Shown one piece after another: positions 2,670 to 56,484 of a stretch of DNA of 59,833 bases (position 1 is the stretch's first letter; each line of letters begins with the position of its first letter). Origin of the DNA: a virus. The position numbers were made by a program, and so were the translations under genes. Location: the IMG/VR virus record IMGVR_UViG_3300020185_000003. One strand, given 5' to 3'. The notes below the pieces were generated by a model. It made no database searches. It saw nothing but the letters and a program-made list of their open reading frames with translations, and was not told where the DNA came from.

Positions 2670-4899
2670 TACCCTGTATAGAGTTTTACATAATTATGTA
2701 CAACCAACCGTCCTCGCTAATAAAAACAAAGCGAAGAGTTGGACCTATGGCTATGATTTTAAAAATGACCTTATCGTAATATCTAAAGATGGAACCGTTG
2801 GTGAAGTTATTGAGATTGAAGGATTAAAAATAGGACTACCAATTGCTCCAAAGGAGTGTCTTCAAAGACACAAAAAAAAAGAGGAGCAGTATTGGGAACG
2901 TGTTGAAATCCCAAACGAGTTAAATAAAATTCAAACAATATTTCAATGGAACGAAAAGCCTTCTGAATTCAAGGACAGATGGGTGGACTATATTGAGGAA
3001 GAGTTTGACAGGAGGGAGAATGGGGTATGGTTTATGAATAATGGAACCCCAACATATATAACAGGGTCTCATTATATGTACCTTCAATGGACAAGCATTG
3101 ATGTTGGATACCCGGATTATCGTGAAGCCAATAGAATCCTGTATATACATTGGGAGGCTTGTAAGGCTGACAGTAGAAGTTTTGGACAGATATATCTAAA
3201 GATTAGACGTTCAGGATTTTCATTTATGTCTTCATCAGAGTGTGTAAACACAGGAACTCTTGCGAAAGATGCAAGGGTTGGCATCTTGTCAAAGACAGGT
3301 GCTGATGCTAAGAAGATGTTTACGGATAAGGTTGTTCCAATTAATAGCCGATTACCATTTTTCTTTAAACCGATTATGGATGGTATGGACAAACCTAAAA
3401 CTGAATTAGCGTTTAGGATTCCTGCGGCAAAAATTACAAAAAAGAATATGTACAATGCAGACAACAATGAGTTGTATGGATTGGATACCACTATAGATTG
3501 GAAGAATACAGACGACAACAGTTATGATGGTGAGAAGTTGTTGTTATTGGTTCACGATGAAAGTGGAAAGTGGATTAAACCAAATAACATTCAAAACAAT
3601 TGGCGAGTAACAAAAACTTGTTTGCGTTTAGGTAGTAAGATTATAGGTAAGTGTATGATGGGTTCCACCTCTAATGCGTTAGCAAAAGGTGGTGACAACT
3701 TTAAACAACTTTATGAGGACTCTAATGCGTTAAAGAGAAACTCAAATGGTCAAACCAAAAGCGGTATGTATTCTCTTTTCATTCCTATGGAATGGAATAT
3801 GGAAGGATTTATTGACAGGTATGGTATGCCCGTGATGCATAAGCCCACCAATAACCCCATAATTGGAGTTGATGGTGGGAATATCCATCAAGGTGCAGTT
3901 GACTATTGGGAGAACGAGGTTGAGTCTTTAAAGAACGATGCCGATGCACTTAATGAATTCTACCGTCAGTTTCCTCGCACAACGTCTCACGCTTTCCGTG
4001 ACGAAAGCAAGATGTCATTGTTCAATCTGACTAAGATATATCAGCAGATAGACTACAATGATTCATTAATAAAAGAACACCATATGACTCGTGGGTCTTT
4101 TTCTTGGAAGGATGGTATAAAAGATTCAAAGGTTATTTTTAGTCCAAACAATAACGGAAGGTTTTCGATTGGTTGGAATCCAAAAGCACATCTTCAGAAT
4201 AATATAATTATAAGGAATGGTATTAAGTACCCGGGGAATGAGCACATAGGTGCATTCGGATGTGACAGTTATGATATTTCGGGTGTTGTTGGCGGTGGGG
4301 GTTCTAATGGTGCTCTTCACGGATTAACTACATATCATATGGAAGAAGCACCTGTCAATACTTTTTTCTTAGAATATATTGCTCGTCCTCAAACCGCAGA
4401 GATATTTTACGAAGAGGTTCTTATGGCTTGTGTATTTTATGGTATGCCAATTCTAATCGAGAACAACAAACCTCGTTTGCTTTACCATTTTAAAAATAGA
4501 GGCTACAGAGGGTTCTGTATGAATAGACCTGATAAAGCATATACAAACCTGTCAAAAACAGAAAAAGAACTCGGAGGTATTCCGAATACGAGTGAAGATA
4601 TTAAACAGGCACACGCTGCTGCAATAGAATCTTATATTGAAAAATATGTTGGCTTAGACTTAGATGGAAGTTATAGAGATATGGGGGATATGGGAGATAT
4701 GATTTTTACCCGAACCTTGGAAGATTGGGCAAGGTTTGATATATCGAACAGAACCAAGCACGATGCCTCTATTAGTTCAGGGTTGGCTATTATGGCAACT
4801 CAGAAGGCTATGTATTTAAGCGAGAAAAAACAATCAAAAATAAAGATTAACTTTGCAAGGTATAGTAATAAAGGAACAATAAGCGAAATTATTAGATGA
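2647..4899 (+). CDS. terL: terminase large subunit
   Basis: 750 aa. It has a Walker-B-like LLLLVHDESGKW, a coupling-like MMGSTSN, and nuclease-like acidic motifs (GAFGCDSYD, ILIENN). It lies directly upstream of the portal-scaffold-capsid order. The Walker A motif is deviant (KIRRSGFS). Confidence 0.65.
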   Translation: MQKEGQDSTLYRVLHNYVQPTVLANKNKAKSWTYGYDFKNDLIVISKDGTVGEVIEIEGLKIGLPIAPKECLQRHKKKEEQYWERVEIPNELNKIQTIFQWNEKPSEFKDRWVDYIEEEFDRRENGVWFMNNGTPTYITGSHYMYLQWTSIDVGYPDYREANRILYIHWEACKADSRSFGQIYLKIRRSGFSFMSSSECVNTGTLAKDARVGILSKTGADAKKMFTDKVVPINSRLPFFFKPIMDGMDKPKTELAFRIPAAKITKKNMYNADNNELYGLDTTIDWKNTDDNSYDGEKLLLLVHDESGKWIKPNNIQNNWRVTKTCLRLGSKIIGKCMMGSTSNALAKGGDNFKQLYEDSNALKRNSNGQTKSGMYSLFIPMEWNMEGFIDRYGMPVMHKPTNNPIIGVDGGNIHQGAVDYWENEVESLKNDADALNEFYRQFPRTTSHAFRDESKMSLFNLTKIYQQIDYNDSLIKEHHMTRGSFSWKDGIKDSKVIFSPNNNGRFSIGWNPKAHLQNNIIIRNGIKYPGNEHIGAFGCDSYDISGVVGGGGSNGALHGLTTYHMEEAPVNTFFLEYIARPQTAEIFYEEVLMACVFYGMPILIENNKPRLLYHFKNRGYRGFCMNRPDKAYTNLSKTEKELGGIPNTSEDIKQAHAAAIESYIEKYVGLDLDGSYRDMGDMGDMIFTRTLEDWARFDISNRTKHDASISSGLAIMATQKAMYLSEKKQSKIKINFARYSNKGTISEIIR
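2856..2871. repeat. PAL16 copy A (GTGTCTTCAAAGACAC, exact)
   Basis: Lies inside the terminase CDS and is read as E-CLQRH. Confidence 0.95.
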
Positions 4900-17655: not shown

Positions 17656-18846
17656 ATGCCACAAACATATTACATAGACGGGTCAACACTACTCAACTCT
17701 ACGGCAGTTTACACTGACGCAGGGTTGACTACTTGTGCCCCCGATGGTTTTTATTCTGATGGAATAAACTCAAGAGAATTGGTAGGGTGTATATTGCTTC
17801 CTGCTCAGGCTTGCGGTAGTTGTGCCACCCCTTGCGGGCAGCCTATTGCAGCAAATGGAGGTCAAGGAATCTATAAGGTCGACTTAGACGCAGGAAACTC
17901 TATTGGTGCTATGATTGTAAAATACAATCCTGCAAGCGTTCCCGATGGAATAAGAGTACTTTATAACGGTGGCGTTTACAATCAACTAAGTTCTCCTGTT
18001 GATGGATACCACGCAAGTACAGACCCTAATGGTTACACATATATTGGAGCGACTACTGCTGATTGTGGAATATCAGGAACTACATATCCTGCACTTGTAG
18101 AATATGTTTATAATGGTGCTTCATTTGTTGCTTCAGGAAATACGGTATCTGTTTTTGTCGCTGCGGGTGATGTCTCTTTGGGGGCAGCACCGGGGTGGTG
18201 TGTTATGGTTATACCTAAAATAAGTGCGACTCCAAGTTTAATTCAAGTTGAAGCGGTTGGTCCTTGTAGTGGTACTGCTTGGAATTTAGATATCGCTTGT
18301 CCTGTAGCACTAACAGGTTACAGTTCAACAACCCGACACCCTGCTTGCACCGAAGCGTGTGGACATCCCTTAACTGAAACATATTATAATGCTCCTGTTA
18401 CAGGAACTGCAGGCTCACCTGCTTTGTATGATTGGGTATTTAGTGATGCTAACGGTCAGTTTGTTTTAACTGATGGTTTTTATGGATTTACAGGAGGTAA
18501 GTGTATGACTGTTCAAAACGGAATTATAGTGGCAATAAGCACTTGCAGCAGCCCCCCTCCACCTACTGAATATATATACTTGTCTACGGTAACTGTTACT
18601 TGTGATGATTTTTGTGGCGGACAAAACTACAATATTGTTACTCAAAAAACTACAGTACAAAACCATAGTTTTATAAATATCACTCTTGGAGATGATATAT
18701 TTGGGTCTGTCATTAGTGATGGATACTATGCATATGCTGCTTCCATAACGGATACTTCAACGGGAGTATATAGAATTATGGAGGTCGTAAACAATGAGGT
18801 TGTAAGTATATTGGCGTGTTCGAGTGGGCAATGTGTGCCGTTGTAA
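17656..18846 (+). CDS. Cys-rich virion protein with repeated DG[FY]Y modules
   Basis: 396 aa. It contains AVYTDAGLTTCAPDGFYSDG, LTDGFYGFTGGKC and ISDGYYAYAAS, and many Cys residues. Confidence 0.75.
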   Translation: MPQTYYIDGSTLLNSTAVYTDAGLTTCAPDGFYSDGINSRELVGCILLPAQACGSCATPCGQPIAANGGQGIYKVDLDAGNSIGAMIVKYNPASVPDGIRVLYNGGVYNQLSSPVDGYHASTDPNGYTYIGATTADCGISGTTYPALVEYVYNGASFVASGNTVSVFVAAGDVSLGAAPGWCVMVIPKISATPSLIQVEAVGPCSGTAWNLDIACPVALTGYSSTTRHPACTEACGHPLTETYYNAPVTGTAGSPALYDWVFSDANGQFVLTDGFYGFTGGKCMTVQNGIIVAISTCSSPPPPTEYIYLSTVTVTCDDFCGGQNYNIVTQKTTVQNHSFINITLGDDIFGSVISDGYYAYAASITDTSTGVYRIMEVVNNEVVSILACSSGQCVPL

Positions 18847-18885: not shown

Positions 18886-19713
18886 ATGCAAAACTATACA
18901 TTAACATATGACGAAGGAGTTCAAGGCTTTCCGTCCTTTTACTCTTACTATCCCGATTTTATGATTGGGATGAATAATTACTTCTATACGTTTAACGGGG
19001 GTAATCTTTACCGTCATAATGTAAATTCTGTTAGGAATAACTTTTATGGTGTACAGTATACATCAAAAGTTCAAAGTGTGTTTAATGACCTTCCATTAGA
19101 GAATAAATTGTTCAAGACCCTAAACTTAGAGGGAGACGATTCTTGGGAGGCTTATATGCGTACAGATATTCAAGACTCAGGATATATTGATGACGATTGG
19201 TTTGAAAAGAAAGAAGGGGCTTGGTTTGCCTTTGTTAGAAACTTAGGCAATGTTCCTGCAGGTGTAGGAGAGTATGCCTTGCGCTCATTGAATGGTATTG
19301 GTAAAAGTTCTGTTGTTACAATTGGAGCAGGTATAGCCACTATTGACTTCCCGTTAACTGTAAACGTAGGTAATATATTAAGTGTTGGCGATATGTTCTA
19401 CTTTGGTTTACCACCTGCGTATAGTAATCCTCAACTTGCAGGACAGGTTACGCAAGTGAACATTAATCTAAGAGCAGGAATCAATCAGGTCGTAATCAAT
19501 ACAGTAGGTTCTACTTTTATACCTACTATTGTTCCGTCACCTGTAACAGTTCCTATTCCTATACAGGATGCTTACTTTTTGTATATCAAGAACGCCATTT
19601 CTGAGTCTCACGGAGTGCTTGGTCACTACTGTGTTTTTGATATTGAAAACGGCAATACTAATAAAACAGAACTGTTTGCAGTTGAGTCGGAAGTAATGAA
19701 ATCCTTCCCATAA
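18886..19713 (+). CDS. hypothetical structural protein
   Basis: 275-aa ORF. Confidence 0.7.
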   Translation: MQNYTLTYDEGVQGFPSFYSYYPDFMIGMNNYFYTFNGGNLYRHNVNSVRNNFYGVQYTSKVQSVFNDLPLENKLFKTLNLEGDDSWEAYMRTDIQDSGYIDDDWFEKKEGAWFAFVRNLGNVPAGVGEYALRSLNGIGKSSVVTIGAGIATIDFPLTVNVGNILSVGDMFYFGLPPAYSNPQLAGQVTQVNINLRAGINQVVINTVGSTFIPTIVPSPVTVPIPIQDAYFLYIKNAISESHGVLGHYCVFDIENGNTNKTELFAVESEVMKSFP

Positions 19714-23058: not shown

Positions 23059-26000
23059 ATGAACGAAGAGTACTTAAATAAGTTATATCAATGGGTATCC
23101 TCTATGGACAATACGTTTCAGGAGGATATGTCTATAGATATGTTTATGCAAAGAATGGCAGACCCTAACTATGCATCTAATATGTATAATTGGATTTCCT
23201 CAAAAGACGAAACATTCCAAACAGATATGCCGTTGGAAAACTTTATGAATAGAATCTCTAATGCTGATTCTATCGCACCACCAACTACATTAAAAAAAAA
23301 AGAAGATGGGACTTCGACATCTTTGGATACCACGTTACAATCAAACTTTCAGCAACCGACTGAAGAAGATTATTTTACAGGAGGATTTGGTGATTTCCTA
23401 AGAGGTATGGATGAAGTGATTCCTCTTGGAATCGGTGACTTTATTGATGACTTATCACGCTCTGTAGCGAGTGGATATCGCCAAGGTCAGTTATCTGAAA
23501 ACGCATCTGACTTATTGTTGCGTGGTTCTATGGCTACTGATGAAGACCTTCAAAGTTTTATTGCCGCAAATAAAGAGGCTCAAATGTTAGGTCCATCAGA
23601 TGAGATGATGGACTATCAGAAGACTTACGAAGAGAACGGCAAAGGAATCTTAGGCGTAATATTAGGCATTGCTAAAAACCCAACAGTCATTCCTGAACTT
23701 ATACTTAGTTCAATGACGGGTATGGCTACAAACACAGATGCATTAGCAGCAGGTGGGGCAGCCATTACGACAGGCGCAGGATATGGAGCAGCGACAGGTT
23801 TAGCAGCAGGTGGTGTAGGAGCAGCCCCGGGTGCTTTAGCAGGTGCGGCAGCCGCAATTCCTTATGCATTTGCAGCAGCAGGAACTGCAGTTGAAATGGG
23901 GGCAACCTTTGCTGAACTTTTACAGGAAGAGGTAGGAGACCAAGAACTAACTGCAGAGAATATCCGAGAGGTTCTTAACAACGAAGAGAAGTACACGAGG
24001 ATTAGAAATAAAGCATTGGCTCGTGGTATAACTATCGGTGCAATTGATGCGTTCACAGGTAAAGTTGGCGGTAAGGTTGCGAGTAAAATTCTCACCAAGG
24101 GTGGTAAGCAAGCAGCAAAGGAAGCCACTAAAGCAACTGTTGCTAAGTCTGTAGCCGCAGCATCAGGTATTGAGGCAGTGGGTGGCTCTGTTGGAGAGGC
24201 TACTGCAAGAGGGGTAATTGGTCAAGATATGGACGTATCAGAGATTGCTCTTGAAGGTATTGCAGAACTTCCCGGTGGTGTGAAAGATTTTGTTTCAGCA
24301 AGATTCAGCAGCCCAAAGTACAAGGTAAATGGAAGCAATGTAGACGCTGCATTTATTGACAACCTTATTGAAACGATGACGCTTGAAGAAATTCAGGCGA
24401 CTAAAATACAGATTGATAACGACTATGATGGAAGAGCAGGTAAACTGCAGGATAGAATTGTAGAGTTGTCTATTAAAGATGAGTTGATAAAAGCAAACCC
24501 CGAACTAAATACTACTACACTAAACGAGTTGACTAAACTTCAAATAGAGTTAGATAAGTTAGAGGGAAATAAAACTGAGGTTGGAAAGGCAAAGGCTGCA
24601 GACCTCAGAGAAAAAATTAAAGACCTTCAGGAAAACCAACTTGAAGAAGAGGTGGTGGCTGAGGTTGAAGAAGCCGTGGTGTCAGGAGTCCCTGAGTTTA
24701 ATGCACAAGAAGAGTTTAACCTTCTTGCTGACGAAGAGAAGGCATCCTACTTAGAGGCAGCAGGTGGAGACCAAGAGGTTGCAATACAATCTTTTGCTGA
24801 CGATGTGGCTTCATTGGAGCAAGACTTAGAATCTGAAAGCAGATTTAGTTTGACCGAAGAAGGCGATGGTTTGTTGCAAGCAGACGAACAAGATGTCGAT
24901 GCTATTGCAGAGGAAATGAATTTAATGGATGCTGATGAGGTAAACTTTGTTGCTCCTGAAGGTGAGACAGTTGTTGTTAACCCAATAGAGGAAAGCAATT
25001 CTTTAGAGACATTAACTGATGAGGACGTAAGAGAGTTAGGATTCGAAAGCACCGATGAAATGGTACAACCATTAGAGTCTTTTGAAGGTATACCAATGAT
25101 TACAGGTATTAGTGATATTGCTGCAGGGGGGACTATTTCTGATGCAACAGGTCAGCCTATGAATGCTAAGGGTGGTGTTATGTTTAATGCATTGGCTAAG
25201 GTTAAGGCTGCTTGGGCAGGTGTAGAGCGTTCAAAGTCAGAGACTCAATATAAAAAAGCAGTAGAACTATACAATAAAAACAAAGGTTTATTTGAAAGAC
25301 TTTGGGAGGAAGGAAGAATCCCTAACGGTCACGTACCTATGGCGATTGTCCGTATGTCTGATGACGCAGTAAACTCTAACGAGATTGTATTTAGATACTT
25401 ATCTCCTGAAGTAAAGGCTCAGCCCGAGGCAAATCAAAAGGCAGCGTTAAATGATGTCGTATCCAATCTGAAAAATAAAAAGGCTCCACAAAATAAACGC
25501 CTATTAGATTTCATAGCAAGGAAAGACATCTCCACATTGGGGCAGTTGCTTGACGCTATTGTTCAGGATGCAAATCTTCGTGCAAAAGGCGATGTTAAAA
25601 GCACACTTACATTAGACGAAAGAGCAGCAATGTTCTCGGAACTATCCACTGCTCCGGGTGTAAAGACTCCTAACAAGGCGTACTTAAAATCACTTTATGA
25701 AGGTGCGCCTAAAAATAACTCAACACTTTTTACTGCTGACAATATTTACAACGCCATTGGAGAACCTTCAATGATGAAGACTAAGAAGGGAGACATTGTT
25801 TCTATCGTTGGTATTGATGTAATAAATGGAGGAGTGATTGATATCGACCACCAAAACTATGGTACAGGACCAAAGGGTAGATTAATTGCCTTAGTGAAAA
25901 ATCCAACTAATGGTATAAATGTATTCCCCACTTGGAGGGCTAAGGCAAGCAGGGTATTTAAACCGAATAAAGCGGGCAAACGACCAAGTGATTTACAAGT

Positions 26001-29000
26001 TTCGGGTCAGACTATGGGTACTGCTGCATCAGACTTGGCGTTCCAAGGAGATAGACCAACTACAGTGATGACAGACTTTCAAATCTTGTTAGGCAAGTTG
26101 AAGTTTGCATTCCCTGATGTTGCCGTTGCAACTTCTATTGAAGAGTTCAATGATATCCTTCAGCAGCCCGGTGTAAGAACAAAGGTTTCTGAGGGCAAGG
26201 TTATTCTTGGTATGACCAAGGACGGAAAGATATTCTTAAACCCTGAGAGAGAATCATTGGCTACTCCTATTCACGAGTATGGTCACATTTGGATTGACTA
26301 CTTGCGTTCTAAAGCAAGCGGGGAAAAGGGAACTGCTTTATTAGAGAGAGGCTTGAAGTTGGTTGAGAATACTCAAGCACTGAAAGATGCCATTGCAAAA
26401 TACGGAGACACTAAACTTGCACGAGAAGAGGCATTGGTAGAACTTATGGCTACCAAGGGAAATACAATTATTGAAGCATCCAAGAAGTCTCAATTCAAAG
26501 AGTGGATGAACGCCACCTTTAAATACATTAAAGAGAAGTTCACTACATCTGATGAGTTGGCTACAGATGCTATTAAGAAAATGTCTCTTGATGAATTTAT
26601 CAATACAGGACTTGCCGACCTATTCAAGGGCAAAGCGGTAAGCACAAAATTCGATGCCGCTAAAGAGTCCAAGGGAATGATGCCGAGGTTTGAACTTGGG
26701 GACGATGTCGCTGCGTTTATTAAACAAGCAAGAGGTCAGGGAATATCAGAGGCTGCAATTAAAACTGCACTAAGAAGAAGAGGTGTTGATGTGGATGTGA
26801 TTGCATCAGCCATAGAAAAAACCAAGGGCAAGGCTGCAGTTCGTACTAAGGTTAGCGAGGAGTTTGCTCAAGGGTATGACCGTGTAATGAAAGAGATTGA
26901 CGGTATCATTGAAAAATCTAAGAAGCGTGGACGTACATATTCTCAGATTCCTAAGAATGTAATTGCATACTTAGAGGGAACAAAGTTATATGAGAACGCA
27001 ACCGATGTTCAGAGAGAGCGAATGATTAGAGATATCAGAAAGAAGTTTGGTATCAAAGAGAAGTCGGCTCCATCTGTTGGAAGAATACTTGGTACTATCA
27101 AGGATATCAAGAAGATTACCATTGCTGAAAAAGAATTATATATGCTTCGCTTAAAGGCTCTTAACGAGGGAGCGAAGAATGTAATTACGGCTATGTCTAA
27201 AGCATCTAAGTTGTTGAACGAGGAGATAAATGACTTAGTAAAAAGCGGACAGATTAGTACGCAACAAATGGCTAATGTTCTTTCTCGATTCAGTAAGGTT
27301 AATCTACTGAGCGATGTATCTATCGAAAGGTTTGTTGACTATATGTCAAAGGTATTTGCTAATGCAGAGTACGCTGAAATTATATCACAAGCAAATCAGA
27401 AACGTAAAGTTGCTAAAGCGAATGCTGCTACTAAGATTGGTATTGCTCAGGCTTTAAGTCCTCAGTTGCAGCGATTGTTTTCTATCAACCCAACTCTTAT
27501 CCCTGATGCGGTATTAGATAAGTACGTATCACTTGTTGAGATGTTTGGCAAGAGAGAGCGAGTCTTGACGCTACCTTCTATTGAAGAGGTGACTCAACTT
27601 ACAGAAGATGTACTGACTGCTATCAATGAAGAGCAATCATTGGTTCCTGAATTACAGGAAAGATATAACGACTACGGTAAGGTAATGAATGATGAGGGCA
27701 AGGTAGACTACGCAGCCACCATTAAGTCGATGCTAAAGGACGATGTCATCACGGATGAGGAGTACGAACTTATGAAGAAATATAAGTCCTCTATCGTCCC
27801 TAAAAAGGCTGCTGCCCCAATGTCAGAAGCCGAGATTGAAGAGAGAAGACAAGATATTATAAACGAAGTAAACCAAACTGAACTTGAATTCAGTGAGTTG
27901 CCGAGTAGAGAAGAGCGTGATTTAGCCGCAAAGTTAAAGCGTTTAATCCGAAGCGGTGCAATTGATGGTCTATCCCTTCCTGATTTGCAAAACCTTTCAA
28001 AGGTTATAGACAACATCAACAACGGATACCTTCCTCATTTTGCTGAGGTAATGGTAGAGAAGTTGAATGCGGTCAATGACGGAAAGAACCTTGCTTCTGC
28101 AATCAATAGGTCTAAGCCTTTGCCACTTACTAAGATTTATGCAAAACTAAAATCATTAGTGACTCGAAAGGATTCTATTGTTGAGATGATAAGACGTAAT
28201 CCGTTGTTCAATATCGACCAAGTCTTTGGGGATTTTAAAACCAAGGATATTTTTGAATCGGTATTTGGTGCTGCGTCAAGGGCGGTAGCAAAGTATACTA
28301 ATGAGTACAGTGTTATTCAAGGCAAAATTGAGAAGGCACAGAATGCGGTACAGAAATCTCTTGGAAGAGACTCTCTGAAATATACTATGTCAAAGTATAA
28401 GCAGATGGCTTACCTGATTCAGCAAGAGTTCTTGAGCAACCCGCAAAGCCCACAAGTAAATTCCGTTACAGGATTCCTTAAAGCAACTATAAAAAGGATT
28501 GACGATGGGACTACTCAGTTTAGTGAGCGTGACGCTGAAATGCTTCAATCTATCTTAAATGATTTTACTGATGCTGATGGTAATTTTGATAACGATGCTT
28601 TGTTTGATTCGTTTAATAATGCCGAAAAGGAATCTATCAAAACAATCCAAGAGATTAATAGTGGTCTCGGTTCTAAAGCAGAGTTCACTTCGTCTGTGAT
28701 TCGTGGAGATAAATTTAATCCACTAAATAACTATGTGCATTTGAATGTAATGCACGAGACTCAGCCAAGTGATATGATGAACGGACCTTCTTTTGTGGAG
28801 TCGTTTAACAATTCATTAAGACCAAGTACAAGAGCGAAGAATTTAATCGAGAGAACGGGTAAGGTATCCGCTTTGAACTTTGACGTTTATGCTTCGGTGT
28901 TGAAGGGTTCTAAGCAAACGCTTATGGACTTCCATCTTACTGAGCCAATCAGAACTGCAAGACGCACAATGAATCAGGCTGAGAAGAACCTTCAGGCTGA

Positions 29001-31832: not shown

Positions 31833-32328
31833 TGGTTCTTTGTTCTACTATCTTATAGATTTCACCAAGTCTTTGTCTGTTAGAGATGACGGATTTTAAT
31901 TGTCCTTCAATTTCTATAATTTTCAAAGATAGCGATTTGTTTTCTTTACGCAAAAGAATTAGTTCTTTTTTTAGTTCATCTTCTGACAAATATAATTGGT
32001 CAGTTATATCTCCATCGAATGAGTTCTTGATTTCAGTATAAGACCTGCGTAGTTCAGGGTCAGACATCAGGTAGTTGTCAAAGTTTTTTACGTAATGTAT
32101 TATAGTTGCGTGATGTTTTACCATAGCCCTGCCAATACTACTATAACCCCAACCTCCCTTATGTAGGATGTGAGCGTATATCATACGGGCGTTTACTATG
32201 TGTCTGCGTCTCGACTTTGCGGTTTTTACGTCAACACCTAACACTACTCTGATTATATCACGAAGGTGTTGTGTTGGATTCAATACTGTTTCGTCCATTT
32301 CTATATTGTTTGATTGTATTTGATTCAT
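31774..32328 (-). CDS. DnaA domain-IV-like HTH DNA-binding protein
   Basis: KSRRRHIVNARMIYAHILHKGGWGYSSIGRAMVKHHATIIHYVKNF follows the DnaA C-terminal pattern (SR..IV.AR....YL......IG......H.T..H). Confidence 0.65.
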   Translation of the reverse strand: MNQIQSNNIEMDETVLNPTQHLRDIIRVVLGVDVKTAKSRRRHIVNARMIYAHILHKGGWGYSSIGRAMVKHHATIIHYVKNFDNYLMSDPELRRSYTEIKNSFDGDITDQLYLSEDELKKELILLRKENKSLSLKIIEIEGQLKSVISNRQRLGEIYKIVEQRTNVGTEEEVKWAINRMYNGL

Positions 32329-38491: not shown

Positions 38492-39226
38492 TTAAAGAAG
38501 TTCATCTATGTAATAGTACTCGATGTTTTCAGTCGGATTGTCTCCAAAGAATTTTCTATAAACCTCAATGGCACGGATTACTTTTTCCTCACCACGCTTT
38601 ACAAATTCTTCTGTTGGTCTGTAGATGCCAAGCATACCGTTGGTCTTATCCACCACATAGAATGTTAGCGGAAGTCCAAACAGTTCCTGATATATGTAGC
38701 ACTGACTGTCATAATTATACTTTCGAGCCGACCACTTAAAATCAGAAATGTTACTTGTTGTTTTCAGGTCAATGAGTTTGTCCTTGCAAACGATGTCTGC
38801 CTTACCCTTCCACATCATACCGTGAATTTCCTTGACTGCAGGAACCTCATACTGATTCCCCTCCTCACGTATGCCTTCATAGAAAGCAAGGTTTTGAATC
38901 ATATTGTCCACGCACCCACGAATCTCTTCGCCCTCCTTCTCTAACATTGCAAAGGGAATCTTATTCTCTGCGATGTATTCCTTGTATGCTTTAGTAGTTC
39001 GAGTTGACACATCAACAAACTTTGTATGCACTGCCTTCTCAGGTTCAAGGATGAGTTGATGAAAGTATCTACCCTTGGCATAGTTCACGTTGTCCTCAGA
39101 AGACTTTCCAAATTCTTTTGGGTTACCAAGTAACGCTCCTATGTCTGAGTTGCTAAGGAATTGTTTTCCAAATGCTCCGTAATAATCCTCGTCATTACGT
39201 AAGCGGTCTAATGTTTCTTTGTTCAT
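38492..39226 (-). CDS. PD-(D/E)XK exonuclease (RecB/Cas4/YqaJ-like)
   Basis: 244 aa with GKADIVCKDKLIDLKTT (D..D-x-K). It is paired with an annealase gene. Confidence 0.65.
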   Translation of the reverse strand: MNKETLDRLRNDEDYYGAFGKQFLSNSDIGALLGNPKEFGKSSEDNVNYAKGRYFHQLILEPEKAVHTKFVDVSTRTTKAYKEYIAENKIPFAMLEKEGEEIRGCVDNMIQNLAFYEGIREEGNQYEVPAVKEIHGMMWKGKADIVCKDKLIDLKTTSNISDFKWSARKYNYDSQCYIYQELFGLPLTFYVVDKTNGMLGIYRPTEEFVKRGEEKVIRAIEVYRKFFGDNPTENIEYYYIDELL

Positions 39227-39876: not shown

Positions 39877-40294
39877 TTTGATTTGATTTTAATTTATTTA
39901 ATTTAATTGTCATCTCTGTGTACTTCTCAAGGATATTTTGCCTTGTGGATTGGTAATAATCGAGTTGCTTCTGAGATGGGTTCGGCTTCTCGTTGACGTG
40001 CTTCTTAATCTGTCGCTCAATTCTGTCGAGTTTTGCACGATAGTTAGACAAAGATATAACATATATTCCATATCTCCAACCACCATCGTGAAATAAATTT
40101 ATATGTTCCTGATTTAGAGAGTGATAAAAATCTCCCGACTTCGCAGTATTCAACAGTTGTATTTGAGAGGTCTCGTTGTCTTTGACAATCTTTATCCCGT
40201 ACAAAAGATAGGACTCGTATCCATTCCCGTGAAGAGGAGATGAAGATGAGTCGTCAGATGCCTGAATAAAGATGTCGTTTAAACTGTAACGCAC
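39845..40294 (-). CDS. hypothetical protein
   Basis: 149-aa ORF. Confidence 0.55.
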   Translation of the reverse strand: MRYSLNDIFIQASDDSSSSPLHGNGYESYLLYGIKIVKDNETSQIQLLNTAKSGDFYHSLNQEHINLFHDGGWRYGIYVISLSNYRAKLDRIERQIKKHVNEKPNPSQKQLDYYQSTRQNILEKYTEMTIKLNKLKSNQNGEHKTTNDI

Positions 40295-40581
40295 GACTTC
40301 ATTTGTTTAATAGTTTTCCTATAGTCTCCGTCTACCTGCAAACGTTCTTTCACCTGATTGATTCCGTAGATAATAGATGAATGGTTAATGAGATACCCCT
40401 TGCTAAACATATACTCTTGGATATAAACGATTCGCATTGGTCGTTCACTGCACATATAGTATAGAAGGTAACGTGCGTCTACAATGTCTCTTCGTTTACT
40501 CTTAGTGAAAAGTAGTTCTTCGCTGATACCGAACAGGTCGGCACATTGAGTTGCGTATTCATTGAAAATATTTAGTTTCAT
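40279..40581 (-). CDS. DnaA domain-IV-like HTH DNA-binding protein (second paralogue)
   Basis: FTKSKRRDIVDARYLLYYMCSERPMRIVYIQEYM...NHSSIIYGINQVKERL. Confidence 0.6.
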   Translation of the reverse strand: MKLNIFNEYATQCADLFGISEELLFTKSKRRDIVDARYLLYYMCSERPMRIVYIQEYMFSKGYLINHSSIIYGINQVKERLQVDGDYRKTIKQMKSCVTV

Positions 40582-40796
40582 TTGATTTGATTTTTTGCTT
40601 CGTAGTCTTTGAATATTTCACCAAAGTACCCGAATAGTTCTTTTAAAATTTCTACTGAAGAGTTGTCTGCTACCCGTGTCTTTGAAGACACTCGCTCTCT
40701 TGATTGAAATTCCCTGAAGTGATACTCATCATCAAGGAATTCGTCTTGGATTTCTTGCTCACGAATTTCGGTGAACATCTGTTTTGATTTTGACAT
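40578..40796 (-). CDS. hypothetical protein
   Basis: 72-aa ORF that contains PAL16 copy G. Confidence 0.55.
   Translation of the reverse strand: MSKSKQMFTEIREQEIQDEFLDDEYHFREFQSRERVSSKTRVADNSSVEILKELFGYFGEIFKDYEAKNQIK
40676..40691. repeat. PAL16 copy G (GTGTCTTTGAAGACAC, exact)
   Basis: Lies inside a CDS; the sense strand reads R-VSSKT-R. Confidence 0.95.
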
Positions 40797-43803: not shown

Positions 43804-44316
43804 TTATTTTAGACTACCAAATTTATTTTTTACTCGTTCCCAATACACTTCAGTTGATTGCTTCTTGTGACCTCGTCCTCCGCCATTCCATTTACGGGCA
43901 ACCACCTCAAAGAATTCTTCCTGAGTCAATCCCTCGCAACACTCAACCTGCTCCGCCATAATCTCAAACATCTCGATAGACTTTTCTCTGTTCCATCTGT
44001 CGTCCAAGGTGTATCGGAATGGGGCGTTCCACTTTTTTAGTTTGCGGTTAACCTCACGCACCATAATAGGACGTATCTGTAGGCAACCTGCCGCTTTCTC
44101 TTTTTCGTTGTATGCAGAATCATTCCCGCTACTCTCTACTTGGATTACTGCTTCAACAAATAATTCCCAATCGGTTTGTGTCTTTGAAGACACAATCTCG
44201 GGTGAGATTGTATCTTCTATAACACATTGTTCTGAATCTGTAGTTGGCTTGTCGTATGATGCAAACCCAAGCACGGATACCGTGACTACTCCTGCTAAAA
44301 TTTTAATCTGTCTCAT
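43804..44316 (-). CDS. lytic transglycosylase (SLT domain) with an N-terminal membrane anchor/signal
   Basis: MRQIKILAGVVTVSVLGF...; AVIQVESSGNDSAYNEKEKAAGCLQIRP matches the E-S..N...G.(L)MQI pattern. Confidence 0.7.
   Translation of the reverse strand: MRQIKILAGVVTVSVLGFASYDKPTTDSEQCVIEDTISPEIVSSKTQTDWELFVEAVIQVESSGNDSAYNEKEKAAGCLQIRPIMVREVNRKLKKWNAPFRYTLDDRWNREKSIEMFEIMAEQVECCEGLTQEEFFEVVARKWNGGGRGHKKQSTEVYWERVKNKFGSLK
44178..44193. repeat. PAL16 copy I (GTGTCTTTGAAGACAC, exact)
   Basis: Lies inside the SLT CDS; the sense strand reads I-VSSKT-Q. Confidence 0.95.
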
Positions 44317-44655: not shown

Positions 44656-44817
44656 TTATCGTGTTAATACTGCGGTTAATTTCTGACGTACTATCCAAGG
44701 ATACCTTGATATGTTGTCGTTGAACACTCGGTCAATGGCTTCCCATTTTGAATGTGCAGAGATATTGCAGATATCTTTACCTGCATATCTCACCTTGTAG
44801 TACTGCTTACTTTCCAT
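44656..44817 (-). CDS. small hypothetical protein (53 aa)
   Basis: Hand-translated as MESKQYYKVRYAGKDICNISAHSKWEAIDRVFNDNISRYPWIVRQKLTAVLTR. It fills an otherwise empty 160-nt gap, and its start overlaps the upstream stop by 11 nt. Confidence 0.5.
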   Translation of the reverse strand: MESKQYYKVRYAGKDICNISAHSKWEAIDRVFNDNISRYPWIVRQKLTAVLTR

Positions 44818-45001
44818 CTTTTGCGAACATTAGAACTCCTGCTAAATACAACAGGGTTAAGGTGAACAAACTCACAATACACGTTGAAATAAAATGTGGT
44901 ACGGAACTTACGTCTTGGAATAACGCCAAGATGAAACGACCTGCGTTGAATGTTACTACTGCCAACATTAACGCCATTAAAACTTTGCTTACTTTTTTCA
45001 T
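44807..45001 (-). CDS. small two-TM membrane protein
   Basis: 64 aa with two hydrophobic helices (VLMALMLAVVTF, IVSLFTLTLLYLAGVLMF). It is the first gene downstream of the hammerhead. Confidence 0.6.
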   Translation of the reverse strand: MKKVSKVLMALMLAVVTFNAGRFILALFQDVSSVPHFISTCIVSLFTLTLLYLAGVLMFAKDGK

Positions 45002-45109: not shown

Positions 45110-46024
45110 TTAATATCTCCTTGGCGCAGGAGTCTCGGTGAATCCTAACCACCCTTTGATATCCTCGGTCACCTTGCCTGTCTTGATATACTTTTGGAAT
45201 GATACTGCCAAGGTCATTATCTCGTTCACCTTGTCTTGGTTTCTGTCGTACATCGCCATCAGGATTGGTTCTGCCTTCTTCAAGAAAGTCTTGAAATTTC
45301 CGTTTGGATTGTTTACGCTGAAATCAACCAATTCATACATCATCTCGTATCTGCGCATCATCTGTTTTACTGATTGGAATCGGGCAGGAAGACGAAATTC
45401 AATCACGCTACCTTTGTTTAAGCATACGTGATACTTGTTTGAATTGCCTACAGGTAATCCTGCCCAATCTTCTCTATTCTCCTGCATACGGATATTGAAA
45501 CGGCAGTAAGGATTTTGCAATCTGTGACGATACATTGCGTACAGGATGCCTGAATTTTTGCGTACTAAATTCATCAATTCACTACCATCCATCCCTTCTA
45601 CGGCAAGAGAAATGTGTCCGCCACATCGCTTGTCTGATGGGCTATTGGCATCCTCAATAATTCTCTTTGCTTTGTGCATCATATCGTAGACCTTGTTGCG
45701 CCATACTGATGCAGGTAGCAAAGGTAGGATGTTGGTCACTGCTTCGTATCCGCAAGAACCATCACGCTCAAATCCGCAAAGCAATTCGTATTCTCTTACT
45801 GCTCCACGAGATAATTGGTTTTTCTCAATCTCCATTCCGATTGTGAAACGTGAATTGAAATCCGAACCTACCTGCACCAAATTGCGCTTATCAGAATTTT
45901 TCAATTGGGCAATGTCCGAAGATTTTGCACCTTTCTGCATCTCACGAAATTCAGGTTTTCTGTGGTAGTGTTGAACTACTGCTCTGTCTGAGCGATTTTC
46001 GATTTTGTAGATGATACCTTCCAT
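45110..46024 (-). CDS. amidoligase (glutamine-synthetase-like fold, Amidoligase_2-type)
   Basis: TIGMEIEKN, GFERDGSCGYEAVTNILP, CGGHISLAVEG, NPYCRFN and GSVIEFRLPA follow the family motif order as I recall it. Confidence 0.7.
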   Translation of the reverse strand: MEGIIYKIENRSDRAVVQHYHRKPEFREMQKGAKSSDIAQLKNSDKRNLVQVGSDFNSRFTIGMEIEKNQLSRGAVREYELLCGFERDGSCGYEAVTNILPLLPASVWRNKVYDMMHKAKRIIEDANSPSDKRCGGHISLAVEGMDGSELMNLVRKNSGILYAMYRHRLQNPYCRFNIRMQENREDWAGLPVGNSNKYHVCLNKGSVIEFRLPARFQSVKQMMRRYEMMYELVDFSVNNPNGNFKTFLKKAEPILMAMYDRNQDKVNEIMTLAVSFQKYIKTGKVTEDIKGWLGFTETPAPRRY

Positions 46025-46124: not shown

Positions 46125-46769
46125 TTACATTCCCATTGATGATTGAAGAAACGCAATTGCTTGAGCAATTTCTGAAGCATCGTTTCGGGTAATCAATTCG
46201 CCATTGGCATTGATGCGGACTGCAATGTTTCGTCCTTCGGGATTCTTCATTGACATTGTGAAGATTGTCTCAACACGTTCCTGTACTTCTGCTGACTCAA
46301 TTGCTTCCTCAGAAATCTCCTCTTCTCCTGTCTCCTCGTTGATGATTGTTTCAACGTCATTGAAATCCTGTGCGAATTTCAACAGACCTGCTAAACTTCT
46401 GTCAACGTCTTTGCCTTGGGCATCTGCTTCGTCACATTTGGTATTGAATGCATCGACAATTTGCTCTGACAATTTCCCTGCTTTAAGTACTTTGTAGAAG
46501 AAAGACTTCTGCCATCCGAAGACCTTTTGACCGAATTCCTCTTTGCTCCACGATAATCCTGCATCCTGCATTTTGAATTTACCTTCCTCAGAAGTGAACC
46601 ATTGTTCTGCTTTTACGACCAATTTTGCCATATTCAAAGTATGACCGAATTTGCTCTTGTGAGCATTGGTAATTTGTCTTTGAATGCGTTTGATGTCATT
46701 CAAGTTTAATGCATTCTTGATTTCTGATTGTGAAAGGAATGCCGTTTCGATTGATAAAAGATTGCTCAT
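46125..46769 (-). CDS. hypothetical early protein (first gene of the leftward block)
   Basis: 214-aa ORF. No motif was recognised. Confidence 0.65.
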   Translation of the reverse strand: MSNLLSIETAFLSQSEIKNALNLNDIKRIQRQITNAHKSKFGHTLNMAKLVVKAEQWFTSEEGKFKMQDAGLSWSKEEFGQKVFGWQKSFFYKVLKAGKLSEQIVDAFNTKCDEADAQGKDVDRSLAGLLKFAQDFNDVETIINEETGEEEISEEAIESAEVQERVETIFTMSMKNPEGRNIAVRINANGELITRNDASEIAQAIAFLQSSMGM

Positions 46770-49965: not shown

Positions 49966-50223
49966 ATGAAACCAATCGGAAAATATATTTTAATCAAAGC
50001 AATAGAGGAAGAGATTAAACACTCTTCAGGTTTAATATTATCTCAAGAAGATTCAAACCAATTGCGCTACAAGAAAGCAACAGTTGTTACTCCGGGAACA
50101 GATGTTGAGCAAATTAAAAGTAATGATTCAATCTATTACGACTCAAGGTCAGGGACCACTATGATAATCAATGGTGAGACCTACACCATTATTGTCGAGA
50201 GAGATGTCGTTGTTGTTTTATAA
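49966..50223 (+). CDS. groS: GroES-like co-chaperonin (Cpn10)
   Basis: 85 aa. MKPIGKYILIKAIEEE..SGLIL....KATVVTPG......ND.IYY....GTTMIINGETYTIIVERDVVVV follows the Cpn10 pattern. Confidence 0.7.
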   Translation: MKPIGKYILIKAIEEEIKHSSGLILSQEDSNQLRYKKATVVTPGTDVEQIKSNDSIYYDSRSGTTMIINGETYTIIVERDVVVVL

Positions 50224-50644
50224 AAGCATTCATTTCTTTTATCATATTTCGGTAGACCTTGTCTTGGTATGAGGCTCCTGCCAAAAACATTGGATTGGTG
50301 GACTTGCCTTCGGGTATTAGTCCACCATTTAATTTATCATACATACTACCTATCATTCGTCTTCCTTTATACGATATCTCGTATAATGCTTTGGTCTTAC
50401 CTGAACGTTTACGGAAGACGACTATCCATCCATCTCTAAGGAGTCTATCAAAACGATTCTCTTCCCACGAGAGTAGTTCGTCAAACTCGTTAAACTTATC
50501 CTTGCTAAAGTAAGTTTCCGAATAAAGGAATAATAGCAGGTCGAGGTCAGAAGTCCCTATTCCATACTTTGCTTTTATAAAATATCTGACCACCCTCCAA
50601 TACTTGAGGTAGTCCCTTGACGGCTCGAACTGTGAAAAACCCAT
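50189..50644 (-). CDS. winged-helix-like regulator (probable); the only minus-strand protein gene inside the rightward block
   Basis: 151 aa with LLRDGWIVVFRKRSGKTKALYEISYKGRRM (wing-like). It has its own -7 box, and its 3' end overlaps groES by 35 nt. Confidence 0.55.
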   Translation of the reverse strand: MGFSQFEPSRDYLKYWRVVRYFIKAKYGIGTSDLDLLLFLYSETYFSKDKFNEFDELLSWEENRFDRLLRDGWIVVFRKRSGKTKALYEISYKGRRMIGSMYDKLNGGLIPEGKSTNPMFLAGASYQDKVYRNMIKEMNAFIKQQRHLSRQ

Positions 50645-54348: not shown

Positions 54349-56439
54349 ATGGCTATTAAATTTTTAGACAGTATTGACATTACGGGTGGAGAAATCCAAA
54401 ACGTATTAGTTCAAAACTTAGCGACTGACCCAACGGGGCTTGGGGCAGGGCAAATCTACTACAACACATCCTCGAATGCGTTGAAGTACTTCAATGGTTC
54501 TGCTTGGACAACCTTGGCAGCATCAGGTGTTGGTATTTCTTCTGTTTCAGGAGGACCCGGTATCACTGTTAACACAGTAGGTCAAGCGGCAACTGTTTCT
54601 CCTGATTACTTAGGTTCTGACAACATTATCCTTAGTTCTGCAGCCTATGGCGCAGGAGACATCTCAGGTTCAGACATTATTATGTTTAGCGATGCTACTG
54701 ATAGTAATGTTAAGAAGGCTTCTATCAGCCAATTACCGTTCACAAACAATGTTGGTACGGTAACAAGTGTTGGTACTGCTAACTCAACTTTCATTTCAGG
54801 TTCAGGAACTGTTACAAGTTCAGGAAACTTAACTTATAGTTTGAGTGCTACAGGAACTGCAAGTTCTTCTACTTACTTACGTGGTGATAATACTTGGGCT
54901 ACTGTTCCTGCAGGATACAATGGATTCACACTTCAAGGTGATTCAGGAACTGCTGATACTATCGCAAGTGGAGACACTGTCGACATTGCAGGTGGGGTAG
55001 GTCTTAGCAGTGCTATCGCAACTGTTGGAACGGTTTCTACTCTTACTGTAAACTTGGACAACACTGCGGTTACTGCAGGTGCTTACACCTCAGCGAACAT
55101 TACAGTTGATGCTCAAGGACGTATTACTTCTGCTGCCAACGGTGCTTCAGGAACTATGTCTTCATTTACAGTTGCTTCTGATTCAGGAACTTCTCAAAGC
55201 ATCACTAACGGAAATACTCTTACCATTTCAGGTGGAACGGGGCTATCAGGTGTTGCAAGTGCTACAGATACCATTACTATCAATCACGATAATAACGGTA
55301 CTGCAGGTACATACGCTTATCCTTCATCTATTACTACTAATGCTCAAGGTCACGTTACTGCAGTAGTTGCAGGTTCTGCTCCGGGCACAATGAGTTCTTG
55401 GACTCTTGCAGGTGATAGCGGTACTTCTCAAACTATTGCAGATGGCAACACTGTTGACATTGCGGGTGGCGAAGGTATTGTTACTGCAGCAAGCGCAACT
55501 GATACGTTGACAGTAACTCTTGACCTTACTGAGTTACCTGTAAGAACTGTGCCTATTGATTCTGCAGCCGACTATATTGTTGGATTGTTTGACAAGGGTG
55601 CTGACCAAAATAAAACGTTTGTAAGAGACTTTACTCTTAGTATGTGGAGTGCTCCAACGGCAGACCTTAGTATTGGCTCAAACAAACTTATCAATGTTAA
55701 TGACCCAACTTTGGCTCAAGATGCTGCAACTAAGAACTATGTGGACACTACATTCGCAGGTTCAGGTGCTCTTATCTTCCAAGGAGGATATGACGCAACA
55801 ACTGCTGCTCCATCTGTTGGTGTAAAACAAGGTTGGACATACGCAGTAACTGCTGCAGGTACAGGTCTTCCTGCAGGATATTGGAGTCCTGCATTGGAAG
55901 TTGGTGATTTGATTATCGCTAATGTAGATGCTCCTTCAACTGCTGCAGATTGGACTGAGGTTAACAAGAACATTGACGTTGCTACTGCAACCGTTCAAGG
56001 TATTGCGAACTTCCCAACTACAGGAGGTCTTAGTGTTTCTTCAGGTGCGGTTAGCCTTGCTAACGTAGGTACTGCGGTAACTAACTTAGGTAGCGCAAGC
56101 GAGTCTTTGAAGATTACGACTGATGCAAAAGGTAGAGTGTCTGCTGCTTCTAAACAAGCAATTGCAATCACCTCATCTCAGGTTACTAACTTTGCGACTT
56201 CTGTTTCAAGTATTGTTGCGGGCACTAAGTTTGTTGACAGTATTGGTGATGGAGTATCCGTTTCTTATCCTGTTAGCCACAACTTGAATAACATTAATGT
56301 TATGGTTCAGTGTTTCAATAACACGACAGGTGAAACTATTTATGCAACGGTAGTTCGTGTAGACCCCAACACTGTTCAGGTGGACTTTAGAACTCCTCCT
56401 GCAGTGAATGATATCAGTGTAATGGTTCTATCAATGTAA
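54349..56439 (+). CDS. tail fibre protein with three ~78-aa tandem repeats
   Basis: 696 aa, G/S/T/A-rich. It has repeats GDSGTADTIASGDTVDIAGG.. / SDSGTSQSITNGNTLTISGG.. / GDSGTSQTIADGNTVDIAGG.. (about 54937..55530). The N-terminus GQIYYNTSSNALKYFNGSAWTT is fibre-like. Confidence 0.8.
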   Translation: MAIKFLDSIDITGGEIQNVLVQNLATDPTGLGAGQIYYNTSSNALKYFNGSAWTTLAASGVGISSVSGGPGITVNTVGQAATVSPDYLGSDNIILSSAAYGAGDISGSDIIMFSDATDSNVKKASISQLPFTNNVGTVTSVGTANSTFISGSGTVTSSGNLTYSLSATGTASSSTYLRGDNTWATVPAGYNGFTLQGDSGTADTIASGDTVDIAGGVGLSSAIATVGTVSTLTVNLDNTAVTAGAYTSANITVDAQGRITSAANGASGTMSSFTVASDSGTSQSITNGNTLTISGGTGLSGVASATDTITINHDNNGTAGTYAYPSSITTNAQGHVTAVVAGSAPGTMSSWTLAGDSGTSQTIADGNTVDIAGGEGIVTAASATDTLTVTLDLTELPVRTVPIDSAADYIVGLFDKGADQNKTFVRDFTLSMWSAPTADLSIGSNKLINVNDPTLAQDAATKNYVDTTFAGSGALIFQGGYDATTAAPSVGVKQGWTYAVTAAGTGLPAGYWSPALEVGDLIIANVDAPSTAADWTEVNKNIDVATATVQGIANFPTTGGLSVSSGAVSLANVGTAVTNLGSASESLKITTDAKGRVSAASKQAIAITSSQVTNFATSVSSIVAGTKFVDSIGDGVSVSYPVSHNLNNINVMVQCFNNTTGETIYATVVRVDPNTVQVDFRTPPAVNDISVMVLSM

Positions 56440-56456: not shown

Positions 56457-56484
56457 GGGGGAGTGTCTTCAAAGACACTCTCCC
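56457..56484 (+). terminator. extended stem-loop on PAL16 copy N (possible terminator; no T-run)
   Basis: GGGGGA-GTGTCTTCAAAGACAC-TCTCCC, 18 nt after stop 56439. Confidence 0.4.
56463..56478. repeat. PAL16 copy N (GTGTCTTCAAAGACAC, exact)
   Basis: Intergenic, between the two fibre genes. Confidence 0.95.

Follow-up and report, generated by a model that had tools for sequence, protein, structure and literature searches.

Why does a phage genome carry the same 16 letters 14 times, in the gaps between its genes and also within genes? This question is raised by IMG/VR virus record IMGVR_UViG_3300020185_000003, a stretch of 59,833 nucleotides (referred to here as the window), in which the near-palindrome GTGTCTTCAAAGACAC is repeated. 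The window is a ~60-kb podovirus-type genome with a P22-like portal, TerL, GroEL and GroES, and also encodes a Sak-like annealing protein, a RecE-like exonuclease, an SNF2 helicase, a primase-helicase, a VRR-NUC nuclease, a GATase-GGCT fusion and a 2,570-aa virion protein; no polymerase was detected among those of its proteins that were scanned. An original prediction, made from the letters of the window alone, had proposed that the 16-mer was an operator for a dimeric DNA-binding protein, an RNA hairpin acting as a 3′-end stabilizer or processing signal, or a landmark for replication or packaging. The second of these roles gave the best fit to the hammerhead, tRNA-like and terminator elements described below, and no support was obtained for the third. 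On balance, and with modest confidence, we favor the view that the 16-mer is transcribed and, as an apical stem-loop, marks or shields the 3′ ends of mRNAs from a punctuated operon that is processed in part by ribozymes. The element is best classed as an intercistronic or 3′-terminal RNA hairpin.

A pattern search of the window for GTGTCTTCAAAGACAC or its complement recovered every site listed in the original prediction, comprising 12 exact copies and 2 with one mismatch (at 30944 and 45081, both reading GTGTCTTCAAGGACAC on the CA strand). Shuffles preserving dinucleotide composition, a control proposed with that prediction, produced a mean of 0.01 to 0.04 matches, and none of 100 shuffles reached 14. 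One count required amendment, as eight copies rather than nine were found in the interval from 38.4 to 48.8 kb. The motif consists of 7-bp arms flanking an asymmetric CA/TG center and, hence, is not a perfect palindrome; no other central dinucleotide was present among the window copies. In RNA form, the 16-mer has a 6-bp stem and a 4-nt loop (GUGUCU-UCAA-AGACAC), with a free energy (ΔG) of −5.6 kcal/mol for the bare hairpin. Six copies lie within genes and eight between them.

An exact-word scan of IMG/VR detected at least 120 loci carrying the 16-mer. Among the loci listed, all but six aligned to the window by blastn, with nucleotide identities of ~66 to 77% except for one near-identical contig. 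Searches of the same database with TerL and with the Sak-like protein each yielded more than 590 relatives (at least 591); individual related loci are cited below by L numbers. In GenBank, the closest relative is an uncultured podovirus, MW202828.1, whose TerL is 75% identical, ahead of the Flavobacterium elemo phages and Cellulophaga podophages with 46% identity, and because of these TerL relatives the host is probably a member of the Bacteroidota. The original prediction would have been undermined if the motif were a repeat abundant throughout host genomes. A scan of 185,579 bacterial genomes (596 Gb) detected only scattered single matches in unrelated taxa, for which ~280 were expected by chance, and two multicopy contigs, both phage-like and binned in metagenome-assembled genomes (MAGs) of Cytophagales and Flavobacteriaceae. 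A host-wide repeat was, therefore, rejected, and the 16-mer is a hallmark of a large phage family. The two contigs, WTJX01000555.1 (L290/L319; Cytophagales MAG, 56 kb), with five copies, and L342 (Flavobacteriaceae MAG), with two, provide a weak hint as to the host. A CRISPR repeat or solitary repeat of an RNA anti-CRISPR was also considered and rejected; the spacing is irregular, no flank is conserved beyond the 16 nt, and the motif is not found in host genomes.

Two elements overlooked in the original prediction, a hammerhead ribozyme after the 45081 copy and a tRNA-like element after the 46106 copy, are the key clues to the role of the motif. These elements, their adjoining copies and the two copies with the clearest terminator context are as follows.

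45081 to 45096, minus strand: one-mismatch copy capping an extended hairpin, GGGTA-16mer-TATCC (ΔG, −18.8 kcal/mol), with the hammerhead 4 nt downstream of the copy.
45022 to 45076, minus strand: type III hammerhead, CUCCUGUC^CACAGG-ugagug-CCUGUG-CUGAUGAG-UCCC-AAA-GGAC-GAAAC-AGGAA, detected with Rfam RF00008 and with a family-specific model.
46106 to 46121, minus strand: intergenic copy 3 nt past the stop codon of the first early gene (46125..46769), with the tRNA-like element 2 nt further on.
46058 to 46103, minus strand: tRNA-like minihelix beginning 2 nt after the 46106 copy, with acceptor stem GGGUAG/CUGCCC, a D-like arm and T arm AAGGUUCGAAUCCUU (GGUUCGAAUCC).
9971 to 9986, plus strand: apex of an intrinsic terminator after the major capsid gene, GGGGGG-16mer-TCTCCC-T7 (ΔG, −21.2 kcal/mol).
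18855 to 18870, minus strand: copy between late genes 17656..18846 and 18886..19713, followed by GCTTTTTTTT (GCT8) on the minus strand.

The hammerhead is located between early genes 45110..46024 and 44807..45001 and is followed on its 3′ side by an A-rich leader and then the ATG of the latter open reading frame (ORF). It scored 47.1 bits with RF00008 (E value of 3e-7 for the whole window), just under the gathering threshold of 48.5 bits, and, hence, was missed by a default Rfam scan; the family-specific covariance model gave 75.9 bits. All of the core nucleotides (CUGAUGA...GAAA) and the cleavage triplet GUC are present, stems I and II are closed and stem III is open. By its sequence, this element is a complete type III hammerhead and is predicted to self-cleave. 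An E-value scan of the whole window detected no other Rfam families, ribozymes or RAGATH-type motifs.

Pairing was evaluated in an alignment of 37 equal-length hammerheads from relatives, which had been preselected for pairing such that only covariation counts as evidence. Thirteen of the 15 stem pairs changed on both sides and 97% of cells were paired, with a covariation score of 0.74 versus 0.23 for shuffled alignments. The family-specific model, built from this alignment and run on 80 early-region loci, detected 88 hammerheads in 34 loci, all of them on the sense strand. In the window, it detected one. A hairpin of the 16-mer family, usually ending ~5 nt or less from the start of the ribozyme model, preceded 70 of these hammerheads, and another strong hairpin (ΔG, −9 to −23 kcal/mol; several with GAAA or UUCG tetraloops) preceded a further 17, so that an upstream hairpin was present in 87 of the 88 cases and only one lacked any. 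The 16-mers ahead of hammerheads lie in extended stems, with a median ΔG for the 40-nt context of −18.6 kcal/mol versus −8.5 kcal/mol for other copies. Over all copies, 18 had four or more Watson-Crick flanking pairs, compared with 6.6 expected, a modest enrichment due to the terminator and hammerhead copies. Flavobacterium phage elemoA (L123, MT497017.1), a cultured distant relative, has a weak hammerhead-like match, scoring 36.6 bits with the family-specific model, at the head of its early operon (19084 to 19138, minus strand) and contains no 16-mer.

The minihelix after the 46106 copy, located between the first two early genes, has no anticodon arm; its z score was −3.2, and it escaped detection by ARAGORN and Rfam. 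Relatives L200, L237 and L241 have similar minihelices after the hairpin. When ARAGORN was run on 60 relatives, tRNA-like elements were rarely called, and an odd tRNA-Val was found 5 nt after a copy in L217. An acceptor stem and T arm without an anticodon arm are the classical minimal shape of an RNase P substrate, and the minihelix is presumed to be a putative processing site of the RNase P type.

The claim that the 9971 copy forms a genuine terminator was upheld, as seven T residues follow directly and the homologous post-capsid site has a hairpin and T-run in all 58 relatives. The apex of this terminator belongs to the 16-mer family in 40 of the 58, while generic hairpins are found in the rest, including MW202828 and elemoA. 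An intrinsic terminator was also recognized at 18855 on the minus strand and, weakly, at 46964 (TTTTGTTTT), whereas the other 11 copies are followed by A-rich or coding sequence. The 18855 copy looks like a terminator facing against the late operon and may stop antisense transcription.

These observations suggest a mechanism in which the 16-mer would be the standard apical module of hairpins set immediately upstream of RNA ends or cuts, with three devices generating the ends. A U-tract would convert the hairpin into an intrinsic terminator (9971, and 18855 on the minus strand), a type III hammerhead would self-cleave shortly past the hairpin (12 nt past the 45081 copy), and a tRNA-like minihelix would be cut, presumably by RNase P, 2 nt after the hairpin (46106). 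After termination or cleavage, the hairpin would be left at the 3′ end of the upstream RNA, such that the early operon would be punctuated into units each ending in a hairpin and the upstream cistron would be shielded from 3′-to-5′ decay. We infer from this arrangement that RNA cleavage and protection actually occur at the copies.

The layout of the early operon is consistent with punctuation of this type. The 80 early loci contain 213 copies, 118 of which lie between co-directional early genes. Most intergenic early copies are 9 to 23 nt past the upstream stop codon, and the distance from copy to ATG is 15 to 33 nt, or 71 to 99 nt with an intervening hammerhead. Most copies in MW202828 are part of a repeat unit consisting of TAATCG, the 16-mer, an A-rich leader and ATG (TAATCG-16mer-AAAAA). 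The leader word AATCAAATCAAA..ATG is A-rich, contains no Shine-Dalgarno sequence and occurs 5 to 9 times per early region directly before start codons (for example, at 45002 to 45020 on the minus strand of the window and in relatives L200 to L261). Such leaders are expected of translation initiation in Bacteroidota.

Orientation in these gaps is strongly biased, with a sense-strand center of TTCAAA (loop UCAA) in 79 intergenic early copies versus TTTGAA (UUGA) in 6. The earlier statement that the CA-centered form lies on the sense strand, therefore, holds as a bias of intergenic early copies but is not strict, since both orientations are found at the syntenic post-capsid terminator. The TG orientation of the two coding copies that read VFEDT is imposed by the reading frame. 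This bias bears on an alternative explanation, in which a dimeric phage protein would bind the 16-mer as an operator in double-stranded DNA and act, for example, as a repressor for early shut-off or as a stoperator-type roadblock, with the RNA hairpin context being real but incidental; operator sites may have evolved at the free apex of preexisting hairpin palindromes and in tolerant coding linkers. An operator would not explain the ratio of 79 to 6, nor the systematic placement of the motif at the tip of longer complementary stems and beside hammerheads. Furthermore, generic hairpins, several of which have RNA-type tetraloops, can take its place there, and so the motif is not independent of its flanks and of the adjoining RNA elements. 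We consider an operator to be unlikely, though worth weighing against the evidence from sequence variants given below.

The recurrence of the exact motif ~14 times upstream of early genes, with lineage-specific variants, is also reminiscent of the promoters of phage RNA polymerases, raising the possibility of an N4-type hairpin promoter for a virion-delivered RNA polymerase. The 2,570-aa virion protein (23059..30771, plus strand) would then be the polymerase. This giant protein has no assigned function, matching only a PHROG family of unknown function and, weakly, DUF3418, and its homologues in elemoA and MW202828 reach 3,700 to 3,860 aa. No RNA polymerase signature was detected in the 2,570-aa protein or in a 1,622-aa protein by sequence searches of Pfam, PHROGs and PDB. 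The hairpin must, moreover, be transcribed, as it is extended by its flanks, can be exchanged for hairpins with RNA tetraloops and tops terminators at the 3′ ends of late genes, while hammerheads starting a few nucleotides after a promoter would be truncated. A promoter is, hence, highly improbable.

The favored 3′-end stem-loop has to be reconciled with the six copies in coding sequences. The coding contexts reported for these copies in the original prediction were all correct.

2856 to 2871, plus strand: copy in terL at codons ~70 to 75 (CLQRH), in sense orientation.
33124 to 33139, plus strand: copy within the SNF2 helicase gene, which is on the minus strand; the sense reading GT GTC TTT GAA GAC AC encodes VFEDT.
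40676 to 40691, minus strand: copy within the small early ORF 40578..40796 (VSSKT), in a segment of ~12 aa that homologues lack.
42864 to 42879, minus strand: copy encoding VSSKT in the gene of the GATase-GGCT fusion, 182 nt ahead of its stop codon and within a linker of low conservation.
44178 to 44193, minus strand: copy within gene 43804..44316 (VSSKT), in a variable region ahead of a conserved domain.
48769 to 48784, minus strand: copy within the GroEL gene (plus strand; CVFEDTY), with GroEL copies also in related loci L209, L216, L218 and L219.

Gene 43804..44316 had been named an SLT-like transglycosylase; no family match was found for it. Synteny was counted by projecting positions from motif-selected loci onto the window, giving 43 copies at the terL position, 34 at the post-capsid site, 10 in SNF2 and 13 at the 45081 site. 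These four positions are, therefore, shared by relatives, as a check suggested with the original prediction had asked. A second set, consisting of the terminase genes of 66 relatives fetched regardless of the motif, was used for codon comparison. G TGT CTT CAA AGA CAC was present in ~24 of the 66 genomes with zero synonymous changes, and flanking conserved codons varied freely. The site is a variable linker between IALP and EQYWE, where other genomes encode CYKRS, VYKRS, IHSRS and similar peptides. For SNF2, the reading AGT GTC TTT GAA GAC AC was fixed in motif-bearing genomes, whereas motif-less genomes with the same SVFEDT peptide utilized GTG or GTA, TTC and other codons. The three early VSSKT copies are lineage specific, and all are in poorly conserved linkers. 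The codon constancy in terL and SNF2 independently confirms that the 16-mer is under strong selection at the nucleotide level, as had been proposed. The further proposal that the protein accommodates the DNA motif was likewise borne out, by the placement of copies in variable linkers (TerL, the GATase-GGCT fusion, SLT and orf72) and by V-to-L and D-to-E changes in the SNF2 protein of a variant lineage.

The conservation of these syntenic copies in core genes, as opposed to their being shuffled, is relevant to another alternative, namely, that the motif acts as a DNA-level hairpin, cruciform or recombination linker, serving as a priming or nicking signal or as a cassette-boundary linker for PeSL (promoter-early stem-loop)-like shuffling by Sak/RecE-type enzymes. 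Early gene content is highly mosaic with the motif recurring at gene junctions, the phage encodes a Sak-like annealing protein, an exonuclease and a VRR-NUC nuclease, and the repeat unit of MW202828 spans the stop codon and leader, all of which are as expected for such a linker. The fraction of synteny breakpoints was 0.745 for motif junctions versus 0.648 for others, a nonsignificant difference, with a P value of 0.12 (Mann-Whitney test per junction, with crude gene calling). A homology of 16 bp is also very short, and a linker would leave the hammerhead adjacency and terminator context unexplained. We regard a DNA-level function as quite improbable.

The four remaining copies of the window, all intergenic, are as follows.

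30944 to 30959, plus strand: one-mismatch copy, with a U·G wobble on the plus strand, extending stop to stop between ORFs 30783..30944 and 30959..31360 (ΔG, −15.7 kcal/mol).
38460 to 38475, minus strand: copy downstream of exonuclease gene 38492..39226 within the early operon, preceding an A-rich leader; syntenic in four loci.
46964 to 46979, plus strand: intergenic copy of the divergent control region, with TTTTGTTTT after it on the plus strand.
56463 to 56478, plus strand: copy topping a long hairpin, TAGGGGGA-16mer-TCTCCCATA (ΔG, −24.9 kcal/mol), that follows structural gene 54349..56439.

The 30944 copy had been described as lying between convergent stop codons and indeed spans from the G of the TAG of one ORF to the C of the CTA stop of the other, marking where the late and early transcription units end. 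The 46964 copy may attenuate transcription in a leader or terminate a small RNA. The same control region (46990 to 47100, plus strand) has direct repeats, comprising two occurrences of CAGGAACGCACACAGGAA together with GGGAACGGGAACGGGGAC, that could be iterons, operators or a replication origin. A tRNA-Arg(TCT) gene is located at 47759 to 47833 on the minus strand amid plus-strand genes.

Variants of the 16-mer in relatives provided evidence of a different type. MW202828 contains zero copies of the window's word and 14 exact copies of GTGTCGTTAACGACAC, which keeps the outer GTGTC/GACAC and has the inner 6 nt changed symmetrically. This word contains an HpaI site, and all 14 copies are in the early operon of MW202828.1 (L121 and L122; 43745 to 55169). 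L241 and L267 have 6 to 7 copies each of GTCTC..GAGAC, a compensatory 3/14 swap, and no canonical form; the SNF2 copy of L241, at the syntenic site, is the variant GTCTCTTTGAAGAGAC, at a cost of the V-to-L and D-to-E substitutions. The SNF2 copy of L248 has a flipped center with an E-to-K change, the terL copy of L142 reads GTGCC..GGCAC, and a GTGTCC..GGACAC variant was also present among relatives. Pairing is kept in GTGTCGTTAACGACAC, GTCTC..GAGAC, GTGCC..GGCAC and GTGTCC..GGACAC. The center toggles between CA, TA, TG and CG, even among close relatives at one site, with the perfectly palindromic TA and CG being the commonest variants, and positions 2 to 5 (TGTC/GACA) are the least tolerant of mismatches.

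Shared ancestry of the copies does not readily account for the switching of a whole genome to one variant, core-gene copy included; this switching suggests a trans-acting, sequence-specific reader. The letter-for-letter conservation, the weakness of the bare hairpin and the presence of copies in core genes call for the same component. We infer that such a reader exists, acting either on RNA or on duplex DNA; in the mechanism set out above, it would recognize the apical stem-loop and would probably be phage encoded and lineage specific.

Several findings weigh against a 3′-end stem-loop, and some of these are what would be expected of an operator. Copies are conserved inside terL, SNF2 and GroEL, where a 3′-end hairpin has no obvious use, and two of the six intragenic copies of the window are in the UUGA orientation; an operator could be read in either orientation within genes. 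The exact constancy of 16 letters, loop included, far exceeds the needs of a structural hairpin, and a bare hairpin of this stability is a weak barrier to exonucleases. Single mismatches at position 6/11 on the sense strand comprised 6 G·U and 10 C·A, giving no clear preference for G·U wobbles. In the L252 and L228 lineages, GTGTCT/AGACAC flank a free 4-nt center (GUGA, GUAA, GCAA, UUAU or UCAU), an arrangement that would suit a dimeric DNA-binding protein just as well, as two half-sites separated by a variable 4-bp spacer. An operator would also account for letter-for-letter conservation, for half-site changes that are concerted and symmetric across all of the copies of a genome, for the constraint on positions 2 to 5, for the prevalence of palindromic centers and for the density of copies in the early operon, to which those of MW202828 are confined. 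No hammerheads were detected in MW202828 with the family-specific model despite its 14 motif copies.

The search for a reader by phyletic profile and family scans identified none. The small proteins of the phage include several with a helix-turn-helix, such as the DnaA-C-like 40279..40581 and 31774..32328, in keeping with an operator, but these candidates are equally frequent in motif-less lineages. No integrase was seen in the part of the gene set that was scanned; a homologue annotated as a repressor protein is present (50189..50644). Variant lineages have diverged in the first early protein (46125..46769), for which AlphaFold gave a good model (pLDDT of 83); this protein proved to be a dead end as a reader, with Foldseek giving no PDB match with an E value of <0.7. 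The proteins enriched with the motif in the phyletic profile were an amidoligase-like protein, the GATase-GGCT fusion and Kyano_Gp96, which are not nucleic acid binders, and this profile is confounded by phylogeny. The corresponding genes (45110 to 46024, 42682 to 43761 and 42368 to 42664, all on the minus strand) resemble a peptide- or metabolite-modification module that co-occurs with motif-bearing lineages; the amidoligase-like protein has invariant ExE, CGGH and EFR motifs, and the third gene encodes a protein of the Kyano_Gp96 family.

A more ambitious form of the 3′-end stem-loop proposal is that mRNA maturation in these phages is largely host independent, with a universal 16-nt tag combined with a hammerhead, RNase P site or terminator and the tag being read on RNA by a coevolving phage protein in the manner of SLBP. 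This is possible but rather doubtful. If true, coevolution of tag and reader would produce lineages such as those with GTGTCGTTAACGACAC and GTCTC..GAGAC.

The significance of the system lies in its regularity. A very abundant environmental phage family exhibits a rigid order of stop codon, conserved hairpin, ribozyme or tRNA-like element, A-rich leader and ATG, a layout that makes ribozyme-punctuated operons directly testable, and elemoA, a cultured relative with a hammerhead-like match, could be an experimental entry point. Concerted 16-nt switching across genomes points to a sequence-specific reader of RNA or DNA. The 16-mer is, in addition, a practical metagenome marker for this phage family and for the boundaries of its transcription units.

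The three motif sequences matched none of the papers in the library searched, and keyword searches found none on the motif or on a hairpin-hammerhead module. The early-region RNase III sites of T7 and the REP/BIME elements (as in malE-malF) are repeated intercistronic hairpins, and cutting leaves a hairpin protecting the 3′ end of the upstream mRNA. The 16-mer shares with these systems a position between cistrons of a polycistronic mRNA, many repeats and a recognizable consensus. Unlike in the T7 sites, the RNA would be ended here by a hammerhead, tRNA-like element or terminator and not by RNase III within the hairpin, and, unlike in either system, the 16 nt of the apex do not vary across hundreds of diverged genomes and also recur within coding sequences. 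REP/BIME elements differ further in that 6 of the 14 copies here are intragenic and bacterial genomes, apart from the two phage-like contigs, give matches at about chance level only, such that the 16-mer does not qualify as a REP element; partial family scans of the window genes detected no RAYT-type or other transposase.

Stoperators, as in cluster A mycobacteriophages (the L5 gp71 sites), lack symmetry and are recognized by the monomeric repressor of a temperate phage. They resemble the 16-mer in the presence of tens of copies of an exact 13- to 16-bp word over early and late operons, mostly in short intergenic gaps near stops and starts, in an orientation biased to transcription and in a consensus that differs between related phages. 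The 16-mer, unlike stoperators, is an inverted repeat with compensatory variants, is found at hairpin tips and adjoins ribozymes, and, as noted above, no integrase accompanies it among the genes examined.

The histone mRNA 3′ stem-loop, which is bound by SLBP, has a 6-bp stem and a conserved 4-nt loop a few nucleotides upstream of the cleavage site in many mRNAs, while in mitochondrial tRNA punctuation, tRNAs or tRNA-like elements are the cleavage signals between cistrons. The resemblance to both is a functional analogy without homology, the present case being a bacterial virus. The PeSL cassettes of T4-type phages are repeated regulatory stem-loops between small mosaic early ORFs, an arrangement that is seen here also; unlike PeSL, the 16-mer has no associated promoter consensus that we could find, and copies also occur in late genes and within core genes. 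None of the T7/REP, stoperator, histone/SLBP or tRNA-punctuation analogues fits every defining feature. To our knowledge, the biological role of bacterial and phage hammerheads is largely unknown.

Hammerheads are reported to flank genes in prophages, with several being present in the intergenic regions of one phage operon, and a role in cutting long phage transcripts into single-gene mRNAs has been proposed (Perreault et al. 2011, PMC3088659). The phage family described here is similar in having several hammerheads in the gaps of one operon, with ribozymes of type III with a canonical core. The passages of that paper on phages mention no obligatory 5′ hairpin and no family-wide apical sequence, in contrast to the hairpin preceding 87 of 88 hammerheads in the present loci. 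It is this near-invariable coupling of hairpin and hammerhead, together with the exact switching of sequence in concert across genomes, that makes the system unusual.

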